A stretch of 21,471 nt of DNA from Blastocatellia bacterium (GCA_016713405.1 JADJPF010000015.1:64001-85471), one strand, 5' to 3'. Counted from the stretch's first letter, positions 1,616 to 21,471 are shown. Notes: a model not told the origin generated them from the letters alone. A program made the numbers and translations.

Positions 1616-1643
1616 ATTTTAACCATCAATTTGTAAATAAAAA

Positions 1644-1680
1644 TAGCCCAAGATAACACTTATCTTGGGCTATTTTATTA
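1644..1680. terminator. Bidirectional rho-independent terminator between convergent genes
   Basis: A perfect 12-bp stem, 'tagcccaagata' (1644-1655) pairing with 'tatcttgggcta' (1661-1672), with a 5-nt loop. It is flanked by 'aaaaa' upstream and 'ttttatta' downstream. Confidence 0.6.
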
Positions 1681-2796
1681 AACATTACTTTGACGAAATC
1701 TTAGTGATGCTAACAGTAACATTACTAGTCCCATAACTAACATTACTGCTCCATTTACCCATAAATGATTAAAACCTGCTCCACGTAAAATAATGCCTCG
1801 CAAAGTATCAATATAGTAAGTTGTAGGAATAAAACGGCTTATCAACCAAAATATTTTTGGCATATTATCTAATGAAAAAATATAGCCTGACAAAAATATT
1901 GCTGGTAGCAATGTACTCATCGCCATTTGCATTGCTTCGCTTTGAGTACGCGCTTTTGTAGAAATAATTAGCCCCATCCCTAAAATAGTTAAAATAAAAG
2001 GAATAGAGAAAATTAATAGTAAAATTACACTTCCATGAATTGGTACATCAAAAGCATAACGCATCACCAGTAAAATCCAGCAAAGCTCAAAAAATCCTAA
2101 TATCCCATAAGGCAACATCTTTCCTACCATTAACCCTAATGGGCTAATAGGTGCTAGGTAAAGATTTTCTAATGTTCCTCGTTCCCGTTCTTTTACTAAA
2201 GAAAATGAAATTAAAGCAATTAACATCATTTGTAAGACTACAGCGACTAACCCAGGAATAAAAAAGTTAGCTGAACGAGTGCTGGGATTAAAAAGAACTT
2301 TATGCCGTGATTCAACTACACCAGGTGATTTTGCTACAATTCGTTTTAATGATTCTTGTAAAGTAATAGCACTAGATACATTTACTGCCTCACTTGTAAC
2401 ATTTGATTCCGAACCATCAACTAGCAGTAAGACACTAGTGTTTATACCTTTTTGCAGAGCGCGTGAGTAATCTTCAGGAATTTTAATTCCAACTTTTGCT
2501 TCTCCTGCAACAATTTTATCATAAAGTTCCTTATCAGAATTTACTCTAGCAACTACATTAAAGTCATCACTATTAATATAACGTTCAATTAAAAGATGAC
2601 TTTCCTGAGTTTTTGCCAGGTCATAAACTACTGTTTTTATTTGACGTACATTAGTATCTACAGCAACGCCTAGTAAAACCATTTCAAAAATAGGTATAAA
2701 AAGAGCAAAAAATAATGTTGTTGGGTCGCGTAGTATCTGAAGTATTTCTTTCTTAAAAACAGGAATTAAGCCTGAAAAAAGATAATTTTCACTCAT
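1678..2796 (-). CDS. ABC-2 type transporter permease of the YhhJ/YadH-like family (372 aa)
   Basis: There is an N-terminal cytoplasmic segment, then a large periplasmic loop, then a C-terminal cluster of 5-6 hydrophobic helices. This is typical of ABC-2 permeases. A strong SD (AGGAGGT) lies 8 nt upstream of the ATG. The gene overlaps the upstream ATPase stop by 4 nt. Confidence 0.8.
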
Positions 2797-3774
2797 AACT
2801 TTGTACCTCCTAACAGCGATATGTTGTTAGTAATATTATTAGTTAGAGTGACAAAAATATCTTCTAAGGAAGGTCTGATAGGGTTTATTACTAGATTTGT
2901 AAAACCTGCTGTTTCTAGGTCTTCTTTCAATTTGGAACTACTTTGAGTCTTTTCACAAAGTATATGAATTGATTGACCAAAAATTGTTGATTCCCAAACA
3001 TAGGGAAGATCTTTAATAAAACTTAATGCTTCAGATGGAGAGCTAGAAAGAATTTCTAAGCGTGTTGAACCAACAGGAGAAACTTCTGGCAACGTTCTTA
3101 GTTCGTCAACAGTTCCAACAGCAATTAAGTTTGATAAATAGATATAACCAACACGGCGGCATCTTTCGGCCTCATCCATATAATGTGTTGTAACAAAAAT
3201 AGTTATCCCATTAGCAGAAAGCTTAAAAAGCAGATCCCATAAAGCCCGACGTGCTACAGGGTCAATTCCCGCAGTAGGTTCATCTAGGAATAATACTTCA
3301 GGTTCATGAATAATTGCACATCCTAAAGCTAAACGTTGTTTCCAACCACCAGATAAAGCACCTGCACGACGTTCTAAATAAGGGGTTAAGCCTGTTAGCT
3401 CTAAAACTTCAGGTTTACGTAAGCTTTATTTGATCTTTTTTCATATGGTATATGCCAGCATAAAAATCTAAATTCTCGTTTACTGTTAGCTCTTCATAAA
3501 GACTAAATTTTTGAGACATATAACCAATGCGTTTTTTAATTTTAAAAGAATCTTTATGAATATCTAAACCAAGAATTTTACCTTCACCAGTTGCATGAGT
3601 AATTAGCCCACATAAAGCTTTAATAATCGTAGTTTTACCAGAGCCGTTTGGCCCAAGTAAGCCAAAGATTTCACCTGTTTTTACTTGAAAAGAAACTTTG
3701 TTAACAGCAATAAATTTGCCAAATTTGATGGTTAAATCTTTTGTTGAAATTACTGGATCTATTGTATTTATCAT
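2793..3774 (-). pseudogene. ABC transporter ATP-binding protein with a single frameshift near 3415-3440
   Basis: The N-terminal ORF (3415..3774) carries Walker A, 'GPNGSGKTT'. A second frame, open from 3425 down to 2793, carries the signature '[12 protein letters not shown]', Walker B '[12 protein letters not shown]' and the H-loop 'TTHYMDEAE'. I translated the 3181-3428 frame by hand. It is continuous with the ORF 2793..3179. The frame switch lies at a T6 run (3434-3439). Confidence 0.8.
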
Positions 3775-3777
3775 AGC

Positions 3778-4920
3778 TTACTCCTTTGGCTTTAATTTAA
3801 CATCAGCCGCCATGCCAGCCTTAAGTAAGCCTTCTTTGTTATCAATATGAATTTTAATTGCAAAAACTTGATGAGAACGTTCATCACGATTTTGAACATT
3901 TCGGGGTGTAAATTCAGCTTTAGCTGAAATTTGTTCTACTTTTCCAAGAAAAGCTTTGTTAGGAAAAGAATCAACAAAAACTTCTACCTCCTGTCCAACC
4001 TGGACAAAACCCAGATCAGGCTCTGGCACATAGACACGTACACGAATTTGATCACTTTCCAAAAGTCTTGCAATAGGGCTAGTTGCTTGAACTAGATCGC
4101 CTACTCGAACACTAAGCAAATCTATTTGACTATCAACAGGAGCAATTACTTCTGCTTCATTTAGTTGGGTGTTAAGTTTTTCAAGCGTCGCATTAGCTTC
4201 GGCTAGTCGTGCTTTAGCTTCCAAAATATCTTCGCTTCTTGCACCAGATTTAAGTAATTTTAGGTTAGCAATAGCTTGTTGGTAACGTTCTTGACCTACA
4301 CGAATATCTTCGCTTCTTGTCCCTGCTTCTAAAAGATCAAGTTTTTGCTGCAAGGATTGATAACGAGAATCGCTTAAAGCCACTTTAGCAGCCATATCAT
4401 CACAGCTTTGTTTAGAAACATAGCCTTCCTTAAAAAGCTGTTCTAATCTAGCTAAGGAGGTTTTATAGTGATTTAGTTCAGCTTTTACACCAATAATTTC
4501 TTCTTTTAGTTGGGAAATTTCTTGGGGACGTGGGCCATTTTTTAAGGCTTCTAATTGGGCTAGTTCACGATTAACAGTTGCTTGGGCTTGTGCAATTTCT
4601 TCTGTCCGATAACCATTTTCTAGCTTTTTTAGATAAGCCTCAGCTTGGTCAATTTTTGCTTGGAGTTGTTTTTTTTCTGCTAGCAGGGTGTCATTATCAA
4701 ATCGTACTAGAGGAGTCCCTTTTTTTACTATTTGCCCTTCTTGTGCTAAAACTTCTATGACACGACCACCAATTTTAGAACCAATTTGTACTTCTTGAGC
4801 TTCGATTGTTCCAAAAAGCAAAAGTTCTACTTTTGTGCTTTCGCTTTTTGTATACATTCCTGTTACTACAATACCAAATGAGATTAATAAAATAATGATA
4901 ACAACAAGTTTTTTATACAT
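3778..4920 (-). CDS. HlyD-family membrane fusion (periplasmic adaptor) protein, 380 aa
   Basis: It has one N-terminal TM helix and a long Ala/Gln/Glu/Leu-rich coiled-coil region. The C-terminal beta-barrel motif 'VPEPDLGFVQVGQEVEVFVDSFP' is typical of YhiI/HlyD adaptors. The SD is GAGGTG. Confidence 0.85.
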   Translation of the reverse strand: MYKKLVVIIILLISFGIVVTGMYTKSESTKVELLLFGTIEAQEVQIGSKIGGRVIEVLAQEGQIVKKGTPLVRFDNDTLLAEKKQLQAKIDQAEAYLKKLENGYRTEEIAQAQATVNRELAQLEALKNGPRPQEISQLKEEIIGVKAELNHYKTSLARLEQLFKEGYVSKQSCDDMAAKVALSDSRYQSLQQKLDLLEAGTRSEDIRVGQERYQQAIANLKLLKSGARSEDILEAKARLAEANATLEKLNTQLNEAEVIAPVDSQIDLLSVRVGDLVQATSPIARLLESDQIRVRVYVPEPDLGFVQVGQEVEVFVDSFPNKAFLGKVEQISAKAEFTPRNVQNRDERSHQVFAIKIHIDNKEGLLKAGMAADVKLKPKE

Positions 4921-4961
4921 TTGTCACCTCGTTATAAAAAAATGAAGAGAACAAAATAAAC

Positions 4962-7622
4962 TTAGTCTTTGATCATTATTTGGCCTTTATCACCGTCAAC
5001 AGTTATATGTTGACCATTTTTAATTATAGTAAGCAGATTAGGAATATTTACTACTGCTGGTAGTCCATATTCACGCGCAACAATCGCGCCATGAGATAAA
5101 AATCCTCCTACTTGCATAACTATTGCTGAAGCACGTAAAAAAAGAGGTGTCCAACCTGGGTCAGTTGTAGGGGCTATAAGTATTTCTCCTGGAGCTAACA
5201 GATTGCCTTCTGATGGGTGCATAATAATTCTTGCAATACCTGAATATTTCCCGCTAGATACTGCTAAACCTTTTAATATTGTGCCATTTGAAGTTTTTTC
5301 TATTATTGCTGGTTTATTGACTGCGCTAGTATTTGTTGTAGGGTTGCCAAAATGATCAAAAATATAAAAATCTTTAATAGTTGTTTCTTTTAACCAAATT
5401 TCTCTTTGGTTTTTATTGTCTGTTGCTATTTCTCTTGCTCCTTGTCCGTTCCATTGGCCTGTTAAATAAGCTTCCATATCAAAACCGCTTAAATGAAAAA
5501 TATCTGTTGGATCATCTAAGAAACCACTGTTAACAAGGCGTTTACCAACTTCTACGCAAATTTTTCTAATAGGCTCTATGGTTGCAACTAACGTAGATTT
5601 GCTAAGTTCGCGTAGTGCTGCACCTTGGCGAGCTTTTTTAGTAAACCAATTGATTAAAGGACGATAAGGAAAAGAAAGCTCTGAAATTTCTTTTTCTGCT
5701 GCTTGACGAACTGCTATAGCAGTGTTTTTTGGGGAAGTGATGTTTTCTGAGCTTAAAATTAATTGTATTTGTTCAAATAAATAGCTAGGGTCTTCATTCC
5801 ATCGTGGGTTGGCTGTTTCAGCTTCATAAACTGCCCGATGTCCAAATTCAGCTAAAAACTTTTCAAACTCTTGACGAAAACTAGATGTTTTAGGAAGCTT
5901 TTGCCAGTCTTTAGCAATAATTGGTGTTTGTTTTAGATAAGTAAGTGCGTCTGTGTCTTGTTGTGCTACTTTGGCTAAATGGTAAAGTTGATAACCATGC
6001 TCTGCTGTAGTAACTTGTCCGCTACCAGCTAAAACCGCTGTAGTTAAAGCCTCGGCCCTCTCAGGTTTAATTTTTGTTAGCGTTTCTTTAATTGGTGTCA
6101 CCCACGCACCAGCATTAGCATTAGCCAACTGAAACTTTTTAGCAAATTCATATTGAAAAACTAAAATTTCCCTAACTAAATCTGCTAATTCTTGATTAGA
6201 TTTACTTGCTACATCTGTGTTTTTCCAACCCTTTATGCGTGTTTGTAAAGTGACAATATCTTTTGGCATTTGTCGGGAAATCTTAAGCAATACTCTAAGA
6301 AATTTTATTTGTCTTAGTTTACGTGTTAATCCTACTTTACCTTTTAGGGGATCGCCTGAAGGCACAGGAATTAAAGGATGATGACCGCCTAGTCCCCGTG
6401 AAGTGTCTTCGGGAGACATTCCAACAGCATCATAAAAAGCCCATTGCATAGTTGTTACTTCAAAATAACCACGTCCGTTAAAACGCTTAAGCATTGGTGA
6501 ACCGTCTTTTCTGGGATAATCCATTGCATCTAAGATTTCATATAAAATTTCAGAAACAAAGTCATGCACCATATGCCAGGTTAAAGTAGTCGGTACACCT
6601 GCAACAGCGTCTTGAATATTTCCGGTTGACCAAATTATTGGTAAATGCTCAATATTTGGGAAAGTATAATGAGGTAAACGGGTTACAGGTCTAGCTTGAA
6701 GCAGCCAAAACTTTTCTCCATCAAATGCCCATTCTATGTCCTGTGGGTTATCACCTTTTCCTATTGCCCAATGAATACGCCAAACCAGTTGAGTTAATTT
6801 TATTGTTTGTTCTGGAGTTAAAACTTGTTGCTCAGGGCTTTTTCTTGATATTTCAGTTAGATTACCTTCTTTAGATAAAACTGTAATTTCTTCAGGATTA
6901 ACTTGACCACTAACCAGGGCCTCAGCTAAACCATTGACAGCATTAATTGTTACAACATTAAGTTGACCTGTTCGCGGGTCGCAAGAAAATGCTACACCGG
7001 CTGATTTAGCCTTGACCATCTCACAAATTACTACAGCACAAGCCACTTGGTCATCTTTCAAATTCATTTTACGACGATAAGCAATTGCTTGTGGTGTCCA
7101 AAGTGAGCCATAACAACCTTTAATTGCATCAATTATTTCTCTTAGCCCTTGAACATTTAGAAAACTGCGATGAATACCAGCAAATGAAGCCGTTTCGCTA
7201 TCTTCTGCCGTCGCGCTAGAACGAACGGCAACAGATGTATTTAATAAGTTATTTCGTTTAAGAAAATTTTCTAGCTCTAATGTAAATTCTTTTGAAAAAT
7301 TAATGTTGGCTAAAATCTCTTGGATTTTATTAAGTTTTTCTATTATTTGAGCTTCTGAGACGGATAAAGGGGATATATTTTCTAATTCTAATTGTAGGCT
7401 TTTTAACTCTGGGCTAAGCATTATTTCTTGATAAAGGTTGGCTGTAACTACACCGCCTACAGGAACTTGAAAGCCATAGCGGTAAAGCTGGCCTAATTTC
7501 CAGCCTTTTCCACCACAAAGCGCGGCTCCAGCTAATGCTGCTGTTGTCCAATCTAAGATTTTGCTACTTGTAATTTCTTCATCATTTATAAAATTAATTG
7601 CTACTTGACTTGCATTGCTCAT
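4962..7622 (-). CDS. PEP-utilising-enzyme family phosphotransferase, 886 aa. It has the rifampicin-phosphotransferase-like architecture: an N-terminal PPDK-type ATP-grasp domain and a C-terminal swivelling phospho-His domain.
   Basis: The N-terminus has 'GGKGWKLGQL...GFQVPVGGVV', the PPDK_N nucleotide-binding motif. The extreme C-terminus has 'GGFLSHGAIVAREYGLPAVV', the mobile phosphohistidine domain. That domain is C-terminal rather than central, and there is no PEP-binding TIM barrel. This is the RPH/YvkC-like layout, not true PpsA. The SD is AAAGGAG. Confidence 0.75.
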   Translation of the reverse strand: MSNASQVAINFINDEEITSSKILDWTTAALAGAALCGGKGWKLGQLYRYGFQVPVGGVVTANLYQEIMLSPELKSLQLELENISPLSVSEAQIIEKLNKIQEILANINFSKEFTLELENFLKRNNLLNTSVAVRSSATAEDSETASFAGIHRSFLNVQGLREIIDAIKGCYGSLWTPQAIAYRRKMNLKDDQVACAVVICEMVKAKSAGVAFSCDPRTGQLNVVTINAVNGLAEALVSGQVNPEEITVLSKEGNLTEISRKSPEQQVLTPEQTIKLTQLVWRIHWAIGKGDNPQDIEWAFDGEKFWLLQARPVTRLPHYTFPNIEHLPIIWSTGNIQDAVAGVPTTLTWHMVHDFVSEILYEILDAMDYPRKDGSPMLKRFNGRGYFEVTTMQWAFYDAVGMSPEDTSRGLGGHHPLIPVPSGDPLKGKVGLTRKLRQIKFLRVLLKISRQMPKDIVTLQTRIKGWKNTDVASKSNQELADLVREILVFQYEFAKKFQLANANAGAWVTPIKETLTKIKPERAEALTTAVLAGSGQVTTAEHGYQLYHLAKVAQQDTDALTYLKQTPIIAKDWQKLPKTSSFRQEFEKFLAEFGHRAVYEAETANPRWNEDPSYLFEQIQLILSSENITSPKNTAIAVRQAAEKEISELSFPYRPLINWFTKKARQGAALRELSKSTLVATIEPIRKICVEVGKRLVNSGFLDDPTDIFHLSGFDMEAYLTGQWNGQGAREIATDNKNQREIWLKETTIKDFYIFDHFGNPTTNTSAVNKPAIIEKTSNGTILKGLAVSSGKYSGIARIIMHPSEGNLLAPGEILIAPTTDPGWTPLFLRASAIVMQVGGFLSHGAIVAREYGLPAVVNIPNLLTIIKNGQHITVDGDKGQIMIKD

Positions 7623-8253
7623 AAGGTGGAACTCCTTTAGCTAAAGAGAAATCCAGACTTGGTTTAGCACCTTCTAAAAACAAAGAAAGACAAAAATTAA
7701 GTTTTTCTTTTAATGAAATATTTTCACTAGATTCTAGCCAATATCTTACTGAATGGATGAAAACAAGCCCAAAGATTTGTGAAAGCTCATAGGAAGAAAT
7801 ATCATTTCTAAGCTCGCCTTTTTCTTGTGCTGTGGCTAAAAACTTATGGACAACCTGCCTAAATGAAGGATGATCATGACGCTCATGATGCTTTTTCATA
7901 TGCTGATAATTACTAATGCTATAGTGGAAAAAAATATTAGCTAGCTTACGGTTTTCTGTTAGCCATCTTGCGGCTTCTGCTAGAAAATCCTGAAGTGCAA
8001 TAAGAGGTGATTGACCTGTTTCTATAGCTATTTGTGTACGCAAAGCGTTTTCTAACATAGATGTTTCACCAAGTGCTAAAACTAGTTCCTCTTTACATTC
8101 AAAATGATAATAAAATGTTCCCTTAGCTACTTTGGCAGCTTTAGTAATATCGTCTATAGTGGTTGTTTCATAACCTTGTTTGGTAAATAGTGAAATTGCT
8201 GTAGAAATGATTTGCTCACGGGTGGCAGTTCGTTTTTCTTCTCTTAATCCCAT
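7594..8253 (-). CDS. TetR/AcrR-family transcriptional regulator, 219 aa
   Basis: The N-terminal HTH is 'TREQIISTAISLFTKQGYETTTIDDITKAAKVAKGTFYYHFECKEEL'. The stop overlaps the next gene's start by 29 nt. Confidence 0.8.
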   Translation of the reverse strand: MGLREEKRTATREQIISTAISLFTKQGYETTTIDDITKAAKVAKGTFYYHFECKEELVLALGETSMLENALRTQIAIETGQSPLIALQDFLAEAARWLTENRKLANIFFHYSISNYQHMKKHHERHDHPSFRQVVHKFLATAQEKGELRNDISSYELSQIFGLVFIHSVRYWLESSENISLKEKLNFCLSLFLEGAKPSLDFSLAKGVPPYEQCKSSSN

Positions 8254-8402
8254 AGTTAATTTATTGTAACAATCTGACTAAAGTTTATTTTTAGACTACG
8301 GTCAGTTTTCTAAAAAAGTTTCTCTACTCTAGCAAAATAAAGCTTTGGAAGCATCAATAAAAACTATGCTAAACTCAACAAAAACAGCGAAGTAGGTAGG
8401 CT

Positions 8403-8708
8403 ATGACAAATAAAGAAATTCAAAAATTAATAGAATTTATTATCACTCAACAAGCAGAAATGTCTGTAAAACATGCACAGATACTTGATATTCAATTTGA
8501 AACTGCAAAAAGACAAGGTGAATATGAAAAACGCCAAGCTGAATTTGAAATCAAATTTAACAATAAATTAGATGCTTTATTAGATTGGCAAGCAAAATTT
8601 AGTATTGATTTAGAAGATTTAAGAAAAGAGACTAAGGAATTTAGAGACGACCTTAAAAAACGGCTCTTCCGTAATTCCGTGGAGGCCACAAGATATAGTG
8701 TAGAATAA
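8403..8708 (+). pseudogene. Small charged coiled-coil protein gene, interrupted at codon ~87 by the IS insertion. The last 15 codons and the stop codon are IS-derived.
   Basis: The ORF reads through position 8661 into the left inverted repeat of the IS. The C-terminal 'RLFRNSVEATRYSVE' is encoded by IR sequence. A good SD (TAGGTAGG) precedes the ATG. Confidence 0.5.
8662..8698 (+). repeat. Left terminal inverted repeat of the IS (IRL)
   Basis: 'ggctcttccgtaattccgtggaggccacaagatatag' matches the reverse complement of 9924-9960 at about 33 of 37 positions. Confidence 0.65.
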
Positions 8709-9923
8709 AAAACAAAAATTTGACAAGACTTGACAAGCGGGGTAAGAAAAATGGGAAAATAGAAATTCCGCTAGATATAGAAGGGTAAGAGTAATAGGGC
8801 AGAAATAAACAGAAAAGGAAATAATAATCAAGGTGAAAACTAGAAGAGGGACAAAATGTAGAAAGTGTGGGGAAATCAAGAACTTTCAGGATATGATAGA
8901 AAAATAAGACTAAGGCATTTACAGTATTCAATAGGAAAGTATACGCAGAAATACGACCGAAAAGATATAGATGTCCGTATTGTGAAGGAAATCCAACAAC
9001 GACACAAAAAGTGAATGGTATGAGGGCTAATTCAGCGCATACAAAAGCATATGAGCAAATGATACTAGTAGAGCTAATAAACTCAACGATAGTAGATTGC
9101 AGTAAAAAACAAGCAGTAAGCCAAGAGAAGTAGAGGGATAATAGACAGAAATATAAAAACAAGTGTGGACTGGAAATATACGAAAGTGTACCAGTGATAG
9201 GAATAGATGAGATAGCACTAAAAAAAGGACATAAGGATTATGTAGCAATAATATCAACAATGGGGGCAAGGGTAAATATAGCAGGAACAAAAAACAGTAA
9301 AAACATTCTTAAGTAATATACCATCACGAATTAAACTAACTATAGAAAGAGTATGTACAGATCTGTATGAAGGATATATAAATGCAGCAAAAGAAGAGCT
9401 TCCTCAAGCACAAATAGTAGCGATCGTTTTCACATAGCGAAAGCTTATGAGAAGGTGCAGCAAAAAAAGAAAAAGTGAGTTAAAAGACTAAAAAAAGATT
9501 GCCGAAACCGAGTATGAAGAACAAGGGGTATGTGGACTTTTAGGCAAAATCCTCTTGACCTAGAAGTAGAACAACAATCACAACTAAAAAAGTCTTTTCT
9601 TTATCTCCTTCATTAAAATGGCTATGACTTTAGAGAAGAGCTAACAGATATTTTGACAAATCTCCATCAAAAATAGAAGCAACCCTTTCTATTTTATCTT
9701 GGGTTGATAGAGTTAAGAATAGTTCTTTATCCTGTTTTGATTCTTTTTAACTACTCTTAACAATCCCTAGATTCTATTACTAATTATTTTCTTGACCGTG
9801 AATCCTCTGGCTTTGTTGAAGGTCTTACAACAAAATTAAAGTTCTTAAACGTCGTTCTTATGGCATTTTACCTCTTCTCGTATTTTCAAAGCGATCTCCA
9901 GGTTATTTTTTGCTTTTCTTACA

Positions 9924-9960
9924 ACGCTATATCTTGTGGCCTCCACGGGTCGGAAGAGCC
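9924..9960 (-). repeat. Right terminal inverted repeat of the IS (IRR)
   Basis: The reverse complement is 'ggctcttccgacccgtggaggccacaagatatagcgt'. Confidence 0.65.
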
Positions 9961-10000
9961 AAAAACTAAAAGATACCCTTAAAAAACTAAAGATACCCTT
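9961..10000 (+). repeat. Near-perfect 20-bp tandem duplication immediately outside the IRR
   Basis: Copy 1 is 'aaaaactaaaagataccctt' (9961-9980) and copy 2 is 'aaaaaactaaagataccctt' (9981-10000). Confidence 0.6.
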
Positions 10001-10132: not shown

Positions 10133-11641
10133 CTACGTTATTTTATCTAGTAACCAGGTAGGCCATTCAGATTCTTTATTCCAAAGTAAATATTCCTTTA
10201 CATAATCTTGCAACATCACTCTAAAAAAAATAGGCAGTTGAAATTGCCCGTTTCCTTTCCAGTAATTTTCCCAATAAATCGGAAGAGAAAAATTAAATAT
10301 TTTGTTAGCTTCCTGGATAATTCGTTGAAATTGATTGGTTTGCATTTGAAGACTATCCAGGAAATCTTGTTGTAAAAATTTAATACCTGATATGTCTGGT
10401 TGCCAACAATCAATCTTTTGCTCTCGCTCAATTTTCTGCTCTAAAACCTTCCATTTGTTATTAGCAGTTTTTCTTAAGACTCCAGCCTTAAAAAGCATTG
10501 GCAGCAATTCAATTACTACTTTTTTATTAAAAATAGCTAGCTGAGAGCTTTTTGCTGATAAATAAACCTCAATTTCTTGGGCAGTAACGGATAAATCTGT
10601 AACATCAATATTAGTAAAATCACATAATGCGTTAGCTAGGCGTTTAAGATAGATTTTTAAGCTAGGTGAAGGCTTTACAGATGGACAAGCATTGTCCAAG
10701 TCCCAAGAATAATTAAGCTCTGTGCGCCAAATTTCTGGTCTTTGCTGCCACCAGTTTAAGAGTAAAATTAGCAATACTACTAAACGTTCTAAAGGTTTTG
10801 TTTCTGGAATAATTACTGTAAGTCGTGAGCCTTCATTAATTTGCTCTGCATATTCTAGGCATTCTTTTAATAGCGTAGGCAAATAATTAATTTTTTGAAG
10901 AAACTCTGTTGCCAAAGAAACAAAGTTTGATAAATCACATTCAGCAAATAAAGAGCATAAATTTAATTTTCGTTTTACTCCAAAACAAGTAACAAACTCT
11001 AAACTTAATTTATTTTTTAAGTTGGGTAGTTCAGCAATATTAGTAATTTGCTTTAAGTTTGTTGCTACTTGCCAATAAGATTTTGGTGTAACGGTTAGTC
11101 GTTTTTCAAGGTCGTCTTGGCACCAAATAATGATTTTTTCCCGCAGTTTTATTATTGCTATTTTGCAAGCATGATGAGGATCTGAGCCTAAATTAAAGTT
11201 GTCAAACCAGTCATCAATTGACACTTTTGACCAAAGTTTATTTGGACGATTAACGGCCATATCCAACAGAGCAGCAGCAGTTCTAGTTGCTGGATCATCT
11301 CTAAATAAACTTGGGTCAGCACTATAAATGCTTCCAATCCGAGGCATTCCGCTACGATAAAGCAGACCGGAAAAGGCTAGCCCAATAAATAAACCTGTAG
11401 GCTTTTTGTCTCCATAATCTACTTCACTGTCCTTCCACCTTGGCGCACTTTGGTCAGCTTGAAAATTAATGTCAATTAAGATTATGTCAGGGTCAATTAA
11501 TTCTGTCTGAGCGTTAAGTAAATGCTGGGCAGTTGTCCAAGTGTCTATGTGCAGTAAATCTAGCTCATCTGCTCTTAAAACAGGATAAGAAATATAGTCA
11601 TTTACATCATCAATTAATAGAATTTGTAGCTTATCACTCAT
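10133..11641 (-). CDS. Receiver-domain (CheY-like) protein with a ~360-aa C-terminal domain of unknown function, 502 aa
   Basis: The N-terminus 'MSDKLQILLIDDVND...DPDIILIDINF' carries the acidic pair D11/D12 and a phospho-acceptor-position Asp at residue 57. This is the same numbering as CheY. The remainder has no P-loop, HNH or other motif I can recognise. It lies 6 nt downstream of the preceding ORF and has no SD. Confidence 0.7.
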   Translation of the reverse strand: MSDKLQILLIDDVNDYISYPVLRADELDLLHIDTWTTAQHLLNAQTELIDPDIILIDINFQADQSAPRWKDSEVDYGDKKPTGLFIGLAFSGLLYRSGMPRIGSIYSADPSLFRDDPATRTAAALLDMAVNRPNKLWSKVSIDDWFDNFNLGSDPHHACKIAIIKLREKIIIWCQDDLEKRLTVTPKSYWQVATNLKQITNIAELPNLKNKLSLEFVTCFGVKRKLNLCSLFAECDLSNFVSLATEFLQKINYLPTLLKECLEYAEQINEGSRLTVIIPETKPLERLVVLLILLLNWWQQRPEIWRTELNYSWDLDNACPSVKPSPSLKIYLKRLANALCDFTNIDVTDLSVTAQEIEVYLSAKSSQLAIFNKKVVIELLPMLFKAGVLRKTANNKWKVLEQKIEREQKIDCWQPDISGIKFLQQDFLDSLQMQTNQFQRIIQEANKIFNFSLPIYWENYWKGNGQFQLPIFFRVMLQDYVKEYLLWNKESEWPTWLLDKIT

Positions 11642-11647
11642 AAATTT

Positions 11648-13741
11648 TTATTTTTGGAAAACAAGCTGAGGACGAAATCTTATAGCAATAGAATGGTAAT
11701 TTGATGGTGATTTATCTACAAGCAAAAATTCAACTAACTTTTTTTCTTCTCCTTTATCATTGCGAAATACAAAACAGGAAAGCAAGTTTTGAGTTCTTTT
11801 TAGCCCATCGGAAAGTTCTGTTGGCTTTTCGTCCTCTGCTACAGAGTTAGAAATCAGTAATTCATAAAATTCATCCTCTTCTAAAATTAAGGAAAATTTT
11901 ATATCTATAATGTAACTTACTAGATCTTTTGACTTTAAGAAAAATTTCTTGTTTTGTTCTAGTTGTTTAGCTAAGTATTGGATTGCATTACCTAAAATCT
12001 CATGTATTCCTACTAAAAATAATGAGGTTGCTTCTATGCTAAATGGTGGAAATATAGGTATTTCTGCTAAATTGCTATTTTGTTCTAGTTTTGGACATAA
12101 ACAATCATTTGATTTGCTACACTCAGCTTTATGAAAAATAATAGCAATACTACTAGAGTTAATTAGAGAGAATAATAAATGCTGAATAATTTCTTGAATA
12201 GTTTTACGCCAAAGGTCAGCAAACTCTTGTAAGTTAAAAGCATTAGTGTTATTAACAAGTTTTAATAAGTAAGTTTTAGGATTATCAAATTTTGTTACAG
12301 TTCTAATTGCATCTGTAAGATGATAAAGCTCTTGTAGAACGGCGCAAGTATAAAGCACTTCAGCCTTTTCTATAGGCTCATTATTTAAGCTTTTAGCATA
12401 AAGAACGCGGTAACGACTCCGACGGATTAAGGTGTTCATAATTTCATGAGTTAAGCCTTGAGTAAGAAAATATTGTTCTTTAATAATAATTGCTGCTGTT
12501 CGGGAAAGTTTTTCTCTAAATTGTGCTTCCCAATATTCTTCTTGACCAGGTAGATTTAACTTTACACCTGGACAATTTCTGTAAATTACTAAATCAAAAC
12601 CAAAGGCTTTTTTAAGTAAATAAGCATCTTTATGTTTGTTTAGATTAAAAATTATTGTTGCCGTAGAGTTGCTATCTTCTTCAATTATCAGGAGTTTAGA
12701 TTTTTCTGCTGTAGATTCTAATATTGGCTTTGAAGTTAAATTATTAGCTCTTTTTTCTGCTGACAAATGAAGGGTTAAAGAATTTTCTCTGAAAAATAAA
12801 ATTTCTTCTGCAATCCATAAATGAGAAAAAACATTTGCAACGTTTTTCATTCTTTCCAAAGCATCTGTGTGTTTAGAAATAGCGTCTTCAAGTAGAAAAA
12901 TAAAAACATCTATTAAATTAATAGAGTAAATTTCCTCAATTGCTAAAATTAATGATTCAGGAGGCGACTTTCTAACTAATCTAAGATGCTCTTTTAACTG
13001 CTTATTTTTAGGACAGATCCAGCCAGCCATAGCTCGCCATTGTGCTAAACCTCTTAGCGGTAACAAAATAGGAATAAATGCGCTAGGCAGAATTTTGGAA
13101 AATGAAGATAGTCGTGCATAAAGATATTCTGCTAGGTAAATATGCAAATTTTCTGCTGTTATAAGATTGTTTTGAACTGTGTAATTTAATAATGCAATTA
13201 AATTAGAATACTTAATTTGTTTATATTGGTTAGGATTGTTATTTTTATTTAAGTTTGCTATATCCAATAGAGCTTGAAAACTAAAAGGAGTTTTACGATG
13301 ACTACTACTAATTAAAAGAGCTTCAGCAGAAATAATATGTCCAACCGCGCCGCCTATAAGTTCTAAGTGAAATCCTAAATTTTCTTCACTTCCAACACCA
13401 TCACCAATTTCAAGCAATTTACATAAGTCACTGGTTGGATCCAATATTTTGCTAGCAAGCTCAATTAAAGCTTGATGATTATTATCTACATTTTTGTAAT
13501 TTTCTTGCCAATAAAGATAGATATTTTTTTTGATTTTTTCAGCACATTCTTTGGTGTTAGAGTTAGTTTGATAGCCTGTATCCCAGAACTGAATTTTGTC
13601 AGATAGAGGATTAAAACTTCTTTGTTGGGTAAGAAAAAAATGTTGTAGCTTAGGGGTAAAATGTTGCAATGTCCAAACTAGTAAATCAAAGCAGCGTTTT
13701 TGAATCGCTTCTGCATTTAATTTTGCTTCTAAACTTAGCAT
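11648..13741 (-). CDS. Large hypothetical protein, 697 aa. It may be a highly divergent sensor-kinase-like protein, and this call is low confidence.
   Basis: It is an intact 2.1-kb ORF. Weak 'GLTHEIMNTL' (aa ~430) resembles a HisKA H-box. 'IHEILGNAIQYL' (aa ~580) resembles a HATPase N-box. The ATP-lid G-boxes are not evident. There is no Walker A and no SD. Confidence 0.7.
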   Translation of the reverse strand: MLSLEAKLNAEAIQKRCFDLLVWTLQHFTPKLQHFFLTQQRSFNPLSDKIQFWDTGYQTNSNTKECAEKIKKNIYLYWQENYKNVDNNHQALIELASKILDPTSDLCKLLEIGDGVGSEENLGFHLELIGGAVGHIISAEALLISSSHRKTPFSFQALLDIANLNKNNNPNQYKQIKYSNLIALLNYTVQNNLITAENLHIYLAEYLYARLSSFSKILPSAFIPILLPLRGLAQWRAMAGWICPKNKQLKEHLRLVRKSPPESLILAIEEIYSINLIDVFIFLLEDAISKHTDALERMKNVANVFSHLWIAEEILFFRENSLTLHLSAEKRANNLTSKPILESTAEKSKLLIIEEDSNSTATIIFNLNKHKDAYLLKKAFGFDLVIYRNCPGVKLNLPGQEEYWEAQFREKLSRTAAIIIKEQYFLTQGLTHEIMNTLIRRSRYRVLYAKSLNNEPIEKAEVLYTCAVLQELYHLTDAIRTVTKFDNPKTYLLKLVNNTNAFNLQEFADLWRKTIQEIIQHLLFSLINSSSIAIIFHKAECSKSNDCLCPKLEQNSNLAEIPIFPPFSIEATSLFLVGIHEILGNAIQYLAKQLEQNKKFFLKSKDLVSYIIDIKFSLILEEDEFYELLISNSVAEDEKPTELSDGLKRTQNLLSCFVFRNDKGEEKKLVEFLLVDKSPSNYHSIAIRFRPQLVFQK

Positions 13742-13801: not shown

Positions 13802-15419
13802 TTAATCGCGTTCACGAGTATATGCGTCTGGCAATGGGTTATCTACAACAGGACGAGATGCGCGATTAGCTAAATCTAATGTAGTCATATAGATAGTACG
13901 GGTGACTTTTTCCATTTTTTGATAATCTATTTTATCAGGGCTATCTGAGGGTTTATGATAATCTTCATGAACTCCATTAAAGTAGAAAATAATTGGGATA
14001 CCTTTTCTAGCATAATTATAATGATCGCTACGATAGAAAAATCTATTAGGGTCATTTGGATCATCATAAGTGTAATTAAATTTTAATTTTAAGTATGAGT
14101 TATTTACCGATTCGCTAACTTGGCCTAGTTCGCTACTCATTAGCTTTGAGCCAATTACATAAATTTCATCTGGGCCGGAAAGCTCTTTATTAGCTGGTTT
14201 AGTGTCGTTTGGTTCTTTGCTACGACCAATCATATCAATATTTAATTGTGTAATGATTTGATTAAGCGGTACAGTTGGAAATTTCATTAAATAGCGTGAA
14301 CCAAGTAAGCCTTTTTCCTCTCCACAATGCCAAACAAACATTATTGAACGTTTAGGGCGTGACGGCGCGTGAGAAAAGGCTTCTGCAAGTTGTAGAACTG
14401 CTACTGTGCCTGACCCATCATCATCAGCACCATTATAGATTTTATCTCCATTTACGGGCGAGCCTACACCAACATGGTCATAATGTGCGCCAATGGCTAC
14501 ATACTCATTTTTTAGTGTTGGATCACTACCTTCTAAAATTGCAATTACATTTTGAGAGACTTCTTTTTCAGTTTTAACAGCTATTTTTAAGGAGATTTTT
14601 TTGTCTTGCTTTAATTCAAAGGGGCAATTGTTTGACTAACATCACGGAAAATACTATTAGCTGATTGGGATTCTTCGCTAAACATTTTTATTAGTAATTT
14701 TGGGGAAGGGCTTATCACAGGTAAGGAAAAGATTTTTCTTCTAATTTTTCAAAAATTGTTTGTCCTTGTTCTTCAAAATAAGAAACAGTTCTATCCCAGC
14801 TAGCTAAACTTTCAAAACTTGGAATTAGGATAACTGCTTTACCACCATTTTTTTCTATATAATCAAAAGGCTCAAACCAATCTTCTCCTTCATTTCCTGT
14901 TAGGTCATTATAGCTAAGACCTTGTGGAAAACCATTGGAGATAACAACAATTTTGTCTTTAATATCAAGGTTTTGATAAGGGTTGATATTTTTAGATTTA
15001 ATTACCCAGCCATGACTTGCAAAAACAAGAGGTGCTGTTAAATCTGTTTCATTAGGAAAAGCAAAAAAATCTTCTCCTAACTTAAAGCTCTGACCTCCAA
15101 ATGTTACAGAACTATTAACACGGTCTGTTTTGTTACGACGTATTTGGATTTTTTGAAAATATGAACCATTGTCCCCACCAGGCTTTAAGCCCCACATAGA
15201 AAGGTTCATAGCCAAAAACTTGGCCGTCATATTTAACCCTTTAGATGGTGTGTCTCGTCCTTCCATCTCATCAGAAGCAATAAAATAAAGATAATCTTTC
15301 ATTGCTGAAGCATTAATTTTATCTACTCCTGTAGCCCCAGGATTTTGCGCTAACACAGAATTTAGCGGGCTAAGTAACAAGCAAAATAATATTAAATTGA
15401 GTAAAAATTTTTTCATCAA
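13802..15419 (-). pseudogene. Secreted M28-family aminopeptidase, frameshifted once between ~14620 and 14715
   Basis: The signal peptide is 'MMKKFLLNLILFCLLLSPLNSVLAQ'. The middle and C-terminal frame is open from 14620 to 13802. I hand-translated it as '...NVIAILEGSDPTLKNEYVAIGAHYDHVGVGSPVNGDKIYNGADDDGSGTVAVLQLAEAFSHAP...MFVWHCGEEKGLLGS'. These are the M28 metal-binding HxD/D/EE motifs. Confidence 0.75.
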
Positions 15420-19966: not shown

Positions 19967-21471
19967 CCGAGATAGATTTACAATTCGCGCTCAAGAAGCT
20001 ATAGATTCAGCTACTAAGCTGGCAGAACGTCACAAAATCAACAAATTGACGAACACTGCTTATAACTATGCTTGAATCAAATGAGGAGTAATTAGACCTA
20101 TTTTAGAAAAATAGGAATACGTCCTCCAATGATTTTGGCAGAGCTAGAAGAAGCAATAAAAAGCTTACCTAAAGTTACTGGGACAAGTCAGGAAAGATTT
20201 TTTCCTCCCGCCTTTATTCAACTTACTGCTGCACAAAAAGAAGCCGACAAACTCCAAGATGCACATATCAGCACTGAACATTTGCTGCTTGCTATAGCAG
20301 AAGAAAAAATGGTGCTGCTGGCAAAATACTTCGCCAACACGGGTTGTTAATAAAGACTTGTTAAAAGTCTTAGAACAGTTTCGAGGTGGTGAGAAAATTA
20401 CAGATCAAGACCCTGAATCACGTTATCAATCTTTAAGTCGCTATGGTCGGGATTCAACCGAACTAGCTCGAATAGGTAAATTAGACCCTGTAATTGGACG
20501 AGATGATGAAATCCGTCGGGTTGTTCAAGTTTTGTCCACACGTACTAAAAATAACCCTGTATTGATTGGAGAACCTGGAGTTGGTAAAACTGCTATTGTT
20601 GAAGGACTAGCACAAAGAATTATTTCTGGTGATGTAGAAGAATCTTTACGTAATAAACGCTTGGTAGTATTAGATTTAGGTGCGATGTTAGCAGGTGCAA
20701 AATATCGTGGTGAATTTGAAGACCGCCTTAAGGCAGTTTTAAAAGAAGTTACTCGACCCGATAGCAACATAATTATGTTTATTGATGGAACTACATACCC
20801 CAGTAGGTGCTGGCGCGGCAGAAGGGGCAATAGATGCTTCAAATATGCTAAAACCTGCCCTAGCACGTGGTGAACTTCGTTGCATAGGGGCAACAACCTT
20901 AAATGAATATAAAAATACATTGAAAAAGACGCAGCACTTGAGCGACGCTTCCAACAAGTCTATATTACTGAACCAAATATAGAGGACACAATTGCTATTT
21001 TACGTGGCTTAAAAGAACGCTATGAAGTCCACTTATGGAGTAAGAATTAAAGACACTGCAATTGTTTCAGCTACAATGCTTTCACAACGCTATATTGCTG
21101 ATAGATTTTTGCCTGATAAAGCAATTGATTTAATTGATGAGGCTGCATCACGTCTAAGAATAGAAATTGACAGCCTACCAACAGAGATTGACGAGGTAGA
21201 ACGCGAAAGAATTCAGCGCGAAATAGAGCGTCAAGCACTCCAAAGAGAAGATGATCCAGTTTCACGCGAAAGATTAGCTAAAATTGAGCAAGAAATTTCT
21301 GAATTAAAAGAGAAAAGTGCAGGAATGAAAGCTCGTTGGCAGTCAGAAAAGGAAATTATAGAACGTATTAGTTCTAAAAAGAAGCCCTGGAAAATATGCG
21401 TATTCAAGCTGAACAATTTGAACGAGTTGGAGATTATGGAAAAGTAGCAGAAATACGCTATGGAAGTATGG
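19967..21471 (+). pseudogene. clpB: clpB (Hsp100 disaggregase) N-terminal half with at least eight frameshifts. The 3' end lies outside the window.
   Basis: Pieces in three frames reassemble into a collinear ClpB N-terminus. They are 'MHRDRFTIRAQEAIDSATKLAERHK', 'VIRPILEKIGIRPPMILAELEEAIKSLPKVTGTSQ', '[14 protein letters not shown]', '[49 protein letters not shown]' (Walker A), '[26 protein letters not shown]', '[41 protein letters not shown]', '[37 protein letters not shown]', '[44 protein letters not shown]' and a coiled-coil M-domain. Confidence 0.8.

Follow-up and report, generated by a model that had tools for sequence, protein, structure and literature searches.

In a 21,471-nucleotide stretch of DNA from a Blastocatellia bacterium (GCA_016713405.1 JADJPF010000015.1:64001-85471; hereafter the window), five genes lie packed on the minus strand between positions 1678 and 8253. 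They encode a TetR-family regulator, a large enzyme related to the rifampicin phosphotransferases (RPHs), and the adaptor, ATPase and permease of an export pump. On balance, the sequence favors reading them as a TetR-repressed operon that combines an RPH-family small-molecule dikinase with an adaptor-dependent YbhG/YbhFSR-type ABC-2 exporter. As a set they resemble a familiar type of operon, inducible and concerned with handling a drug or toxin, here put together from two older modules.

The initial annotation, made from the sequence alone, had described five tightly packed minus-strand genes, with overlaps of 29 nt between tetR and the enzyme gene and of 4 nt between the ATPase and permease genes. 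A six-frame listing of open reading frames (ORFs), together with their translations, returned the same genes at the same coordinates. The series begins with tetR (7594-8253), which encodes a 219-aa regulator with Pfam matches to TetR_N (E 2.8e-16), TetR_C_44 and TetR_C_43. Its 3′-end overlaps the dikinase gene (4962-7622; 886 aa, with PPDK_N at residues 35-317 and PEP-utilizers at 810-880) by the 29 nt just mentioned. A gap of 41 nt separates the dikinase gene from that of a YbhG-like membrane-fusion adaptor of the HlyD family (3778-4920; 380 aa, HlyD_D23 and HlyD_3, with an N-terminal membrane anchor), and 3 nt further on begins the gene for an ABC ATPase (2793-3774). The latter is interrupted: ABC_tran is split between one piece at 3415-3774 and another at 2793-∼3413, which together give a protein of 326 aa once repaired. 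It shares an ATGA with the last gene, that of an ABC-2 type permease (1678-2796, stop codon at 1678-1680; 372 aa, ABC2_membrane_3, E 8e-50). Pfam and NCBIfam models bear out the domain content of all five genes. Strong Shine-Dalgarno sequences had been ascribed to the genes in general; each of the four downstream genes does have one of the AGGAG type, but none was found before tetR, whose translation may be leaderless.

The same gene order recurs in at least seven further loci, at 62–100% protein identity and in at least four differing flanking contexts, and the arrangement is therefore not a product of chance. Homologous loci compared with the window are designated here by L-numbers. The closest, metagenome contig L086, has all five genes in order at 100% protein and 99.7% nucleotide identity; L001 and L005 follow at 93% protein identity, and L002, L003 and L092 at 62–64%.

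Upstream of tetR is a conserved non-coding footprint of ∼50 bp (8274-8324, minus strand), a candidate TetR operator and promoter region. It contains a 29-bp imperfect palindrome at 8288-8316, TTTTTAGA-AAACTGACCGTAG-TCTAAAAA, and inside this palindrome sits the footprint core, AAAACTGACCGTAGT. The core is invariant in five loci representing three lineages, the proteins of which are 60–70% identical and the other intergenic DNA of which cannot be aligned. The palindrome has the form expected of a TetR operator overlapping a promoter, and the regulator carries both a TetR_N helix-turn-helix (HTH) and C-terminal domains; we treat it as a candidate operator. No second operator was detected, the core being found once only across the window, and a scan for consensus promoters gave no excess (24 matches versus 25.9 in shuffled sequence).

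At the other end of the gene set an intrinsic terminator hairpin (1640-1676, minus strand) starts 2 nt past the permease stop codon. It has a 17-bp perfect stem with an A-tract before and a U-tract after; RNA folding gives −24 kcal/mol (z −7.2), and none of 200 shuffled sequences was equally stable. No comparable hairpin was seen between the five genes in a terminator scan, which also missed the real hairpin at 1640-1676. The co-transcription under TetR that had been proposed is consistent with the overlapping or abutting ORFs, the operator-like footprint and the single strong terminator; we infer that the five genes form one TetR-controlled transcription unit. The hairpin lies between convergent genes, the permease gene and a plus-strand gene ending at 1615, and, being flanked by an A-tract and a U-tract, may work in both directions.

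The enzyme is built of an ATP-grasp domain (residues ∼20-320), a central substrate domain (∼325-760) and a phospho-His swivel domain (∼775-886). ATP-grasp at the N-terminus and a phospho-His domain at the extreme C-terminus were features of the initial annotation, which took this architecture to be that of RPHs and not of phosphoenolpyruvate (PEP) synthase. Both points hold. The protein contains the motif it quoted, GGFLSHGAIVAREYGLPAVV, in which the His is residue 844. Looking up the exact 886-aa sequence gave no match; in sequence searches of the PDB the best solved-structure relatives are those of Listeria RPH. An AlphaFold2 model computed from 40 homologues (pLDDT 89.4, pTM 0.89) matches Listeria RPH 5hv1 over its full length in Foldseek (E 2.4e-43), whereas structures of PEP synthase and pyruvate phosphate dikinase match the ATP-grasp and swivel parts only, by sequence and by Foldseek alike. 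HpeI matches the ATP-grasp part of the model.

In a neighbor-joining tree, the family members that share 31% identity or more with the window protein form one monophyletic clade. The profile of this clade aligns with that of RPH clade A at a probability of 100% over 816 columns (hhalign), and the Pfam domain Rph_4th is present on homologues, including one that is 93% identical. There is no Pfam match in the enzyme to the TIM barrel (PEP-utilizers_C), and its score against the PEP synthase model (PEP_synth TIGR01418) is 279 where the cut-off is 740. A central domain aligning to PEP- or pyruvate-binding TIM barrels had been named as the outcome that would speak against an RPH-like enzyme; given the full-length Foldseek match and the hhalign probability, the central domain is RPH-type. 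Domain order, the lack of a TIM barrel and the catalytic motif all place the protein in the RPH-type small-molecule dikinase superfamily.

Residues were compared with those of the Listeria enzyme, RPH-Lm, the sequence of which was rebuilt from the alignment of a Bacillus clade-A homologue. All 16 residues used for checking, most of which are named in PMC4844700, fell at their expected positions. MAFFT and hhalign were employed after phmmer and profile searches left the central segment unaligned. Residues K22, R117, T136, E297, R666, E667, K670 and H825 of RPH-Lm, the catalytic roles of which are taken from PMC4844700, correspond to K39, R134, S153, E297, R671, E672, K675 and H844 of the window enzyme. 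The Arg-Glu-x-x-Lys phosphotransfer motif, the catalytic His and the ATP-site Lys and Arg are thus all present, and the catalytic positions are kept in nearly all clade members (T136 as Ser/Thr, K670 as Lys/Arg).

The clade is distinguished by its regulator. Our sample of the wider RPH family comprised 80 genome loci (the search gave more than 4,600 matches). A TetR gene stands directly upstream and on the same strand in 25 of the 36 clade loci with upstream DNA, compared with 5 of 44 outside the clade. No other recurrent neighbor was detected among 41 loci: no carboxylase, phosphatase or ring-cleavage gene. The tetR–dikinase pair often stands alone, as in L094. It is found in Acidobacteriota, Bacillota, Pseudomonadota, Planctomycetota, Chloroflexota, Bacteroidota and Methanoperedens, the clade hosts including Syntrophomonas, Clostridium, Desulfosporosinus, Ralstonia, Acidithiobacillus, Nitrosospira, Gemmataceae, Chitinophagales and Methanoperedens. 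Alignment of the window TetR with dikinase-linked TetRs from other phyla extends from end to end (E 1e-24 to 1e-15), but with pump-linked TetRs it is confined to the 55–64-residue HTH. In Syntrophomonas and other genomes (L014, L018, L019, L004 and L079) two to four RPH-family paralogues occur within a few kb, and these groups mix TetR-linked clade members with closer relatives of RPH (54–56% identical to RPH-Lm). A literature search turned up nothing on the five-gene cassette or a TetR-linked RPH clade; in what was searched, neither the TetR pairing nor the pair's fusion to an ABC-2 pump appears to have been described.

The pump has a different pedigree. Its adaptor scores above the cut-off of NCBIfam RND_mfp (132.5 against 94.9), orthologous adaptors carry HH_YBHG, and for ATPase and permease the RbbA model is the best or near-best match. 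HlyD-family adaptor, ABC ATPase (frameshifted in the window) and ABC-2 permease thus occur together, as in exporters of the YbhG/YbhFSR type. The permease is 85–100% identical within the cassette clade and 56–69% identical to acidobacterial permeases. Its nearest relatives outside the lineage (57–68% identity; Acidobacteriota, among them Terriglobus albidus) belong to tetR–adaptor–ATPase–permease operons that have no dikinase, and a metagenome scan with the permease recovered three loci only. The adaptor–ATPase–permease trio joins the dikinase solely in the narrow lineage of the window, a lineage that is probably acidobacterial.

Because the closest relatives of the pump are in kinase-free tetR–pump operons, and because the window TetR matches dikinase-linked TetRs at full length, the simplest history would have a widespread tetR–dikinase pair joined to an acidobacterial pump module, whose own tetR was displaced. 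The link between enzyme and pump is evolutionarily recent and narrow, with TetR the conserved partner of the enzyme. The ‘inactivate and export’ function suggested by the initial annotation is no more than plausible. The G+C content of the window is 30–39%. The database label of L001 is Blastocatellia and that of L002 Acidobacteria, while L005, nearly identical to L001 at this locus, is labelled ‘uncultured Clostridia bacterium’; to judge from the affinity of the pump genes, which is acidobacterial, the last label seems to be wrong.

We envisage the operon working as follows. TetR would bind the conserved palindrome upstream of its own gene until released by a small-molecule ligand, most likely the substrate of the enzyme, whereupon the five genes would be transcribed as one unit to the hairpin after the permease gene. 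At the ATP-grasp site the β-phosphate of ATP would be moved onto His844; the swivel domain would deliver this phosphate to the central domain, in which Arg671, Glu672 and Lys675 would position it for transfer. The acceptor would be a group on the substrate, most likely a hydroxyl, and the products AMP, inorganic phosphate (Pi) and a phospho-compound. Together with an outer-membrane channel encoded elsewhere, the pump would export the compound or its phosphorylated product. Firm grounds for the dikinase chemistry come from the family; what we infer is the ligand, the substrate and the pump link.

Several observations weigh against this account. The association between enzyme and pump is confined to one narrow lineage, and the two could share a regulator without sharing a substrate. 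L085 has the dikinase and pump genes in order and lacks tetR; expression of the cassette there may be constitutive. In the same locus (Ga0075163_10001048; 3897-4103) the dikinase gene is directly preceded by a divergent 806-aa gene that resembles the VIT/VWA gene flanking the cassette in L002. In the scoring of the 36 clade loci, eleven had no adjacent TetR gene, although at least two of them, L007 and L034, have one slightly further upstream. No gene for an outer-membrane (TolC-like) channel was seen among the window ORFs examined, and the pump would be non-functional in the window if the base inserted in its ATPase gene is real. Nor is detoxification the sole option: homologous dikinases serve in catabolism (HpeHI, CreHI, PpsAB) and in biosynthesis (PigC, RedH, HapC).

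A catabolic or scavenging kinase, trapping a phenolic or similar compound in the manner of HpeHI, CreHI or PpsAB and connected with the pump only through a shared regulator, is unlikely, though it deserves consideration. Phosphorylation by homologous dikinases starts the catabolism of phenolics, TetR regulators commonly control catabolic genes, and the frequent solitary occurrence of the tetR–dikinase pair would fit. However, among the 41 loci TetR is the sole recurrent neighbor and no catabolic partner gene recurs; fusion to an exporter runs contrary to a trapping role; and such catabolic dikinases as are known consist of two components instead of a single chain.

It is more doubtful still that the enzyme is biosynthetic or self-protective, activating or masking an endogenous metabolite (as PigC does, or as a producer does with a pro-drug) that the pump then secretes. 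Exporters do follow modifying enzymes in some producer self-resistance systems, that of oleandomycin for example, and the PigC and RedH models match the C-terminal half of the enzyme with 322 and 304 bits. These scores are nonetheless far below the respective cut-offs of 1300 and 1350. Moreover, no biosynthetic genes lie beside the cassette in at least four flanking contexts, the flanks are unrelated to one another, and no pig or red genes were seen near it in the compared loci. Self-protection for a secondary metabolite, as initially suggested, finds no backing in these neighborhoods.

The initial annotation also proposed an assay with rifamycins; if one of these were the substrate, the enzyme would be a true rifamycin phosphotransferase and the operon a resistance locus that phosphorylates and exports the drug. 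Listeria RPH is the top solved-structure match, the NCBIfam rph equivalog model NF041857 matches at E 5e-99, the phosphotransfer Arg, Glu and Lys are kept, and the database entries of some homologues bear the name ‘rifampicin phosphotransferase’. Yet the NF041857 score is 333 bits against a cut-off of 999 (for NF000283 it is 235 against 1700), and identity to RPH-Lm is 26%, where validated clade A members exceed 42% (PMC4844700). The arm-1/cap segment that holds rifampin is not alignable by hidden Markov model methods (residues ∼324-535 with phmmer, profile positions 308-453), and the window enzyme has an extra helix of ∼15 residues in this region relative to RPH-Lm.

The check on rifampicin-binding residues that had been proposed was made with both aligners. 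Under MAFFT the RPH-Lm contacts Y351, P356, A357, M359, V368 and L387 become V, S, P, L, F and V; the hhalign register places K, D and S at 356, 357 and 359, Phe at 368 and Val at 351. The alignment of this segment is of low confidence, yet neither register keeps the contact residues. In both, the phosphate-binding Gln337 of RPH-Lm is replaced by Asp338, and the whole clade has [K/R/C/Q]-[D/E] where RPH has a Gln-Gln pair. A C. difficile homologue of a non-RPH clade gave no rifampin resistance in E. coli (PMC4844700); the C. difficile sequence in our sample (L080) is 38% identical to RPH-Lm, nearer than the window protein. Scores, identity and contact residues alike fail to point to rifamycin: the substrate is probably not a rifamycin, and the prospect of a rifamycin resistance locus is slight. 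With low identity to Listeria RPH, scores under all curated family cut-offs and no rifampin-contact residues, the enzyme is best described, on present sequence comparisons, as an orphan small-molecule dikinase with the RPH fold and not as a demonstrated RPH. For distant clades of this kind, Stogios et al. (2016; PMC4844700) predicted that phosphotransferase activity is retained and directed at other substrates.

The initial annotation reported a single frameshift in the ATPase gene, in a T6 run at 3434-3439, and suggested that the pump might be inactive, phase-variable or miscalled. The break is real in this sequence, but its location is not the T6 run. That run is at 3436-3441, and taking one base out of it gives a TAA stop; the lesion is a single extra G at plus-strand position 3423, with a premature stop at 3415-3417. 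On the coding strand the window reads AAG CTT ACG TAA at the lesion where L086 reads AAG TTA CGT AAA, and L001 and L005 have AAG CTG CGT AAA at the same site. In all relatives the ATPase is intact, at 318–331 aa. We rejected programmed +1 frameshifting at CUU-A, since related loci are in frame and there is no conserved slippery site. That the frameshift is a biological switch controlling the pump, by phase variation or programmed frameshifting, has almost nothing to recommend it: the interruption is of exactly one base and an A6/T6 run lies 13–18 nt away, but the extra base is outside any homopolymer, three related loci including L086 are in frame, and frame-breaking indels occur elsewhere in the window (at 1269-1270, in an M28 peptidase gene and in a split Clp-type ATPase gene). 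These several other indels in the window, together with the intact L086 gene, make sequence error or strain-specific decay a likelier cause than phase variation.

The other broken genes are as follows. A plus-strand gene at 30-1615 has a T8 run at 1269-1270, where L086 has T6, and is split into ORFs 30-1331 and 1310-1615; it is the C-terminal part of a ∼970-aa gene, whose 968-aa orthologue in L001 gives a faint A2M_BRD match only. The M28 peptidase gene (13802-15419, minus strand) is split into ORFs of 179 and 234 aa, compared with a single ORF of 539 aa in L005, relative to which it has single-base deletions at 14617 and 14726. A Clp/Hsp100-type AAA ATPase gene (20358-21447, plus strand) is in at least two out-of-frame pieces (AAA at 20358-20873, AAA_lid_9 at 21022-21447), a further sign of the many indels in the window.

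Beyond the cassette, the window has a 1,316-bp insertion at 8661-9976 that is absent from L086, L005 and L001. It is bounded by terminal inverted repeats of ∼35 bp, GGCTCTTCCG...CGTGGAGGCCACAAGATATAG, and we identify it as an ISL3-family element broken by several frameshifts, because its plus-strand translation, once the frames are stitched, matches DDE_Tnp_ISL3 (E 8e-25). A small coiled-coil ORF (window positions 8403-8708; intact in L086, at 125 aa) is disrupted by the insertion, and the ∼10-nt overlap of the insertion's flanks in L086 resembles a target-site duplication. Further along, the minus strand at 10133-13741 holds two large ORFs (502 and 697 aa) with no Pfam, PADLOC or precomputed family match. 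L005 has both in the same place upstream of its cassette, and L001 and L086 have the 502-aa ORF there; neither was seen beside the cassette in L002, L003 or L092. A PADLOC scan for anti-phage genes gave no defence-system match save a coiled-coil artefact.

RPH relatives are very numerous, few have known substrates, and they are routinely mislabelled as PEP synthase or rifampicin phosphotransferase. The main value of the present analysis is a practical route to the substrate of an orphan enzyme clade: the TetR pairing and the exporter fusion make the clade experimentally tractable, and the repressor with its conserved candidate operator could be used as a reporter for the inducer, probably the substrate itself. 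Two mistakes can also be avoided in this way: annotating the gene as one for rifampicin resistance, and giving a biological reading to a frameshift whose probable cause is an error or a strain-specific lesion. More speculatively, the tetR–dikinase pair may be a widespread, uncharacterised inducible resistance or detoxification module that phosphorylates a common environmental, non-rifamycin antibiotic or toxin; the clade-specific [K/R]-[D/E] at the site of the RPH Gln-Gln pair would mark a different acceptor chemistry, and an acidobacterial lineage would have captured an ABC-2 pump to expel the phospho-product. We hold this only tentatively, but were it true the co-inherited TetR would be a direct handle for finding the substrate.

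Among known systems a precedent in logic is the macrolide resistance operon mphR(A)–mph(A)–mrx, in which a drug-sensing TetR-family repressor, a drug phosphotransferase and a membrane protein come under one control. There is no sequence relationship: Mph enzymes have the APH/protein-kinase-like fold and Mrx is not an adaptor-dependent ABC pump. The enzyme itself is closest to RPH-Lm (PDB 5FBS/5FBT/5FBU/5HV1; PMC4844700), with which it shares ATP-grasp, central substrate and C-terminal swivel domains in a full-length structural match, as well as ATP-site residues, catalytic His and Arg-Glu-x-x-Lys motif. It differs in its low identity, its replaced rifampin contacts, the change of Gln337 to Asp and the TetR gene that is usual upstream in its clade and rare outside it; it corresponds to the ‘distant clades’ of PMC4844700.

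The flavonoid phosphate synthetase YvkC, PigC/RedH/HapC, HpeHI, CreHI and PpsAB have in common with it the swivelling-His chemistry, by which ATP yields AMP, Pi and a phospho-compound, and their substrates are not rifamycins. Unlike HpeHI, CreHI and PpsAB, which are two-component, the window enzyme is a single chain and is without catabolic or biosynthetic partner genes; it is set apart from PigC and RedH by falling under both cut-offs. The pump and regulator resemble the E. coli cecR(ybiH)–ybhGFSR and yhiI–rbbA–yhhJ type in that genes for a YbhG-type adaptor, ABC ATPase and ABC-2 permease follow a TetR gene. CecR–YbhGFSR has been linked to drug sensing and efflux (PMC12998191 and PMC7190983). 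Where the E. coli ybhGFSR/rbbA type has a fused double ATPase and two permeases, however, the window has one of each; its TetR is not CecR-like, the match being over the HTH only (19 bits), and a dikinase gene stands between tetR and the adaptor gene. The cassette thus brings together a member of the known RPH-type dikinase superfamily, from an uncharacterised clade, and a pump of the known YbhG/YbhFSR kind.

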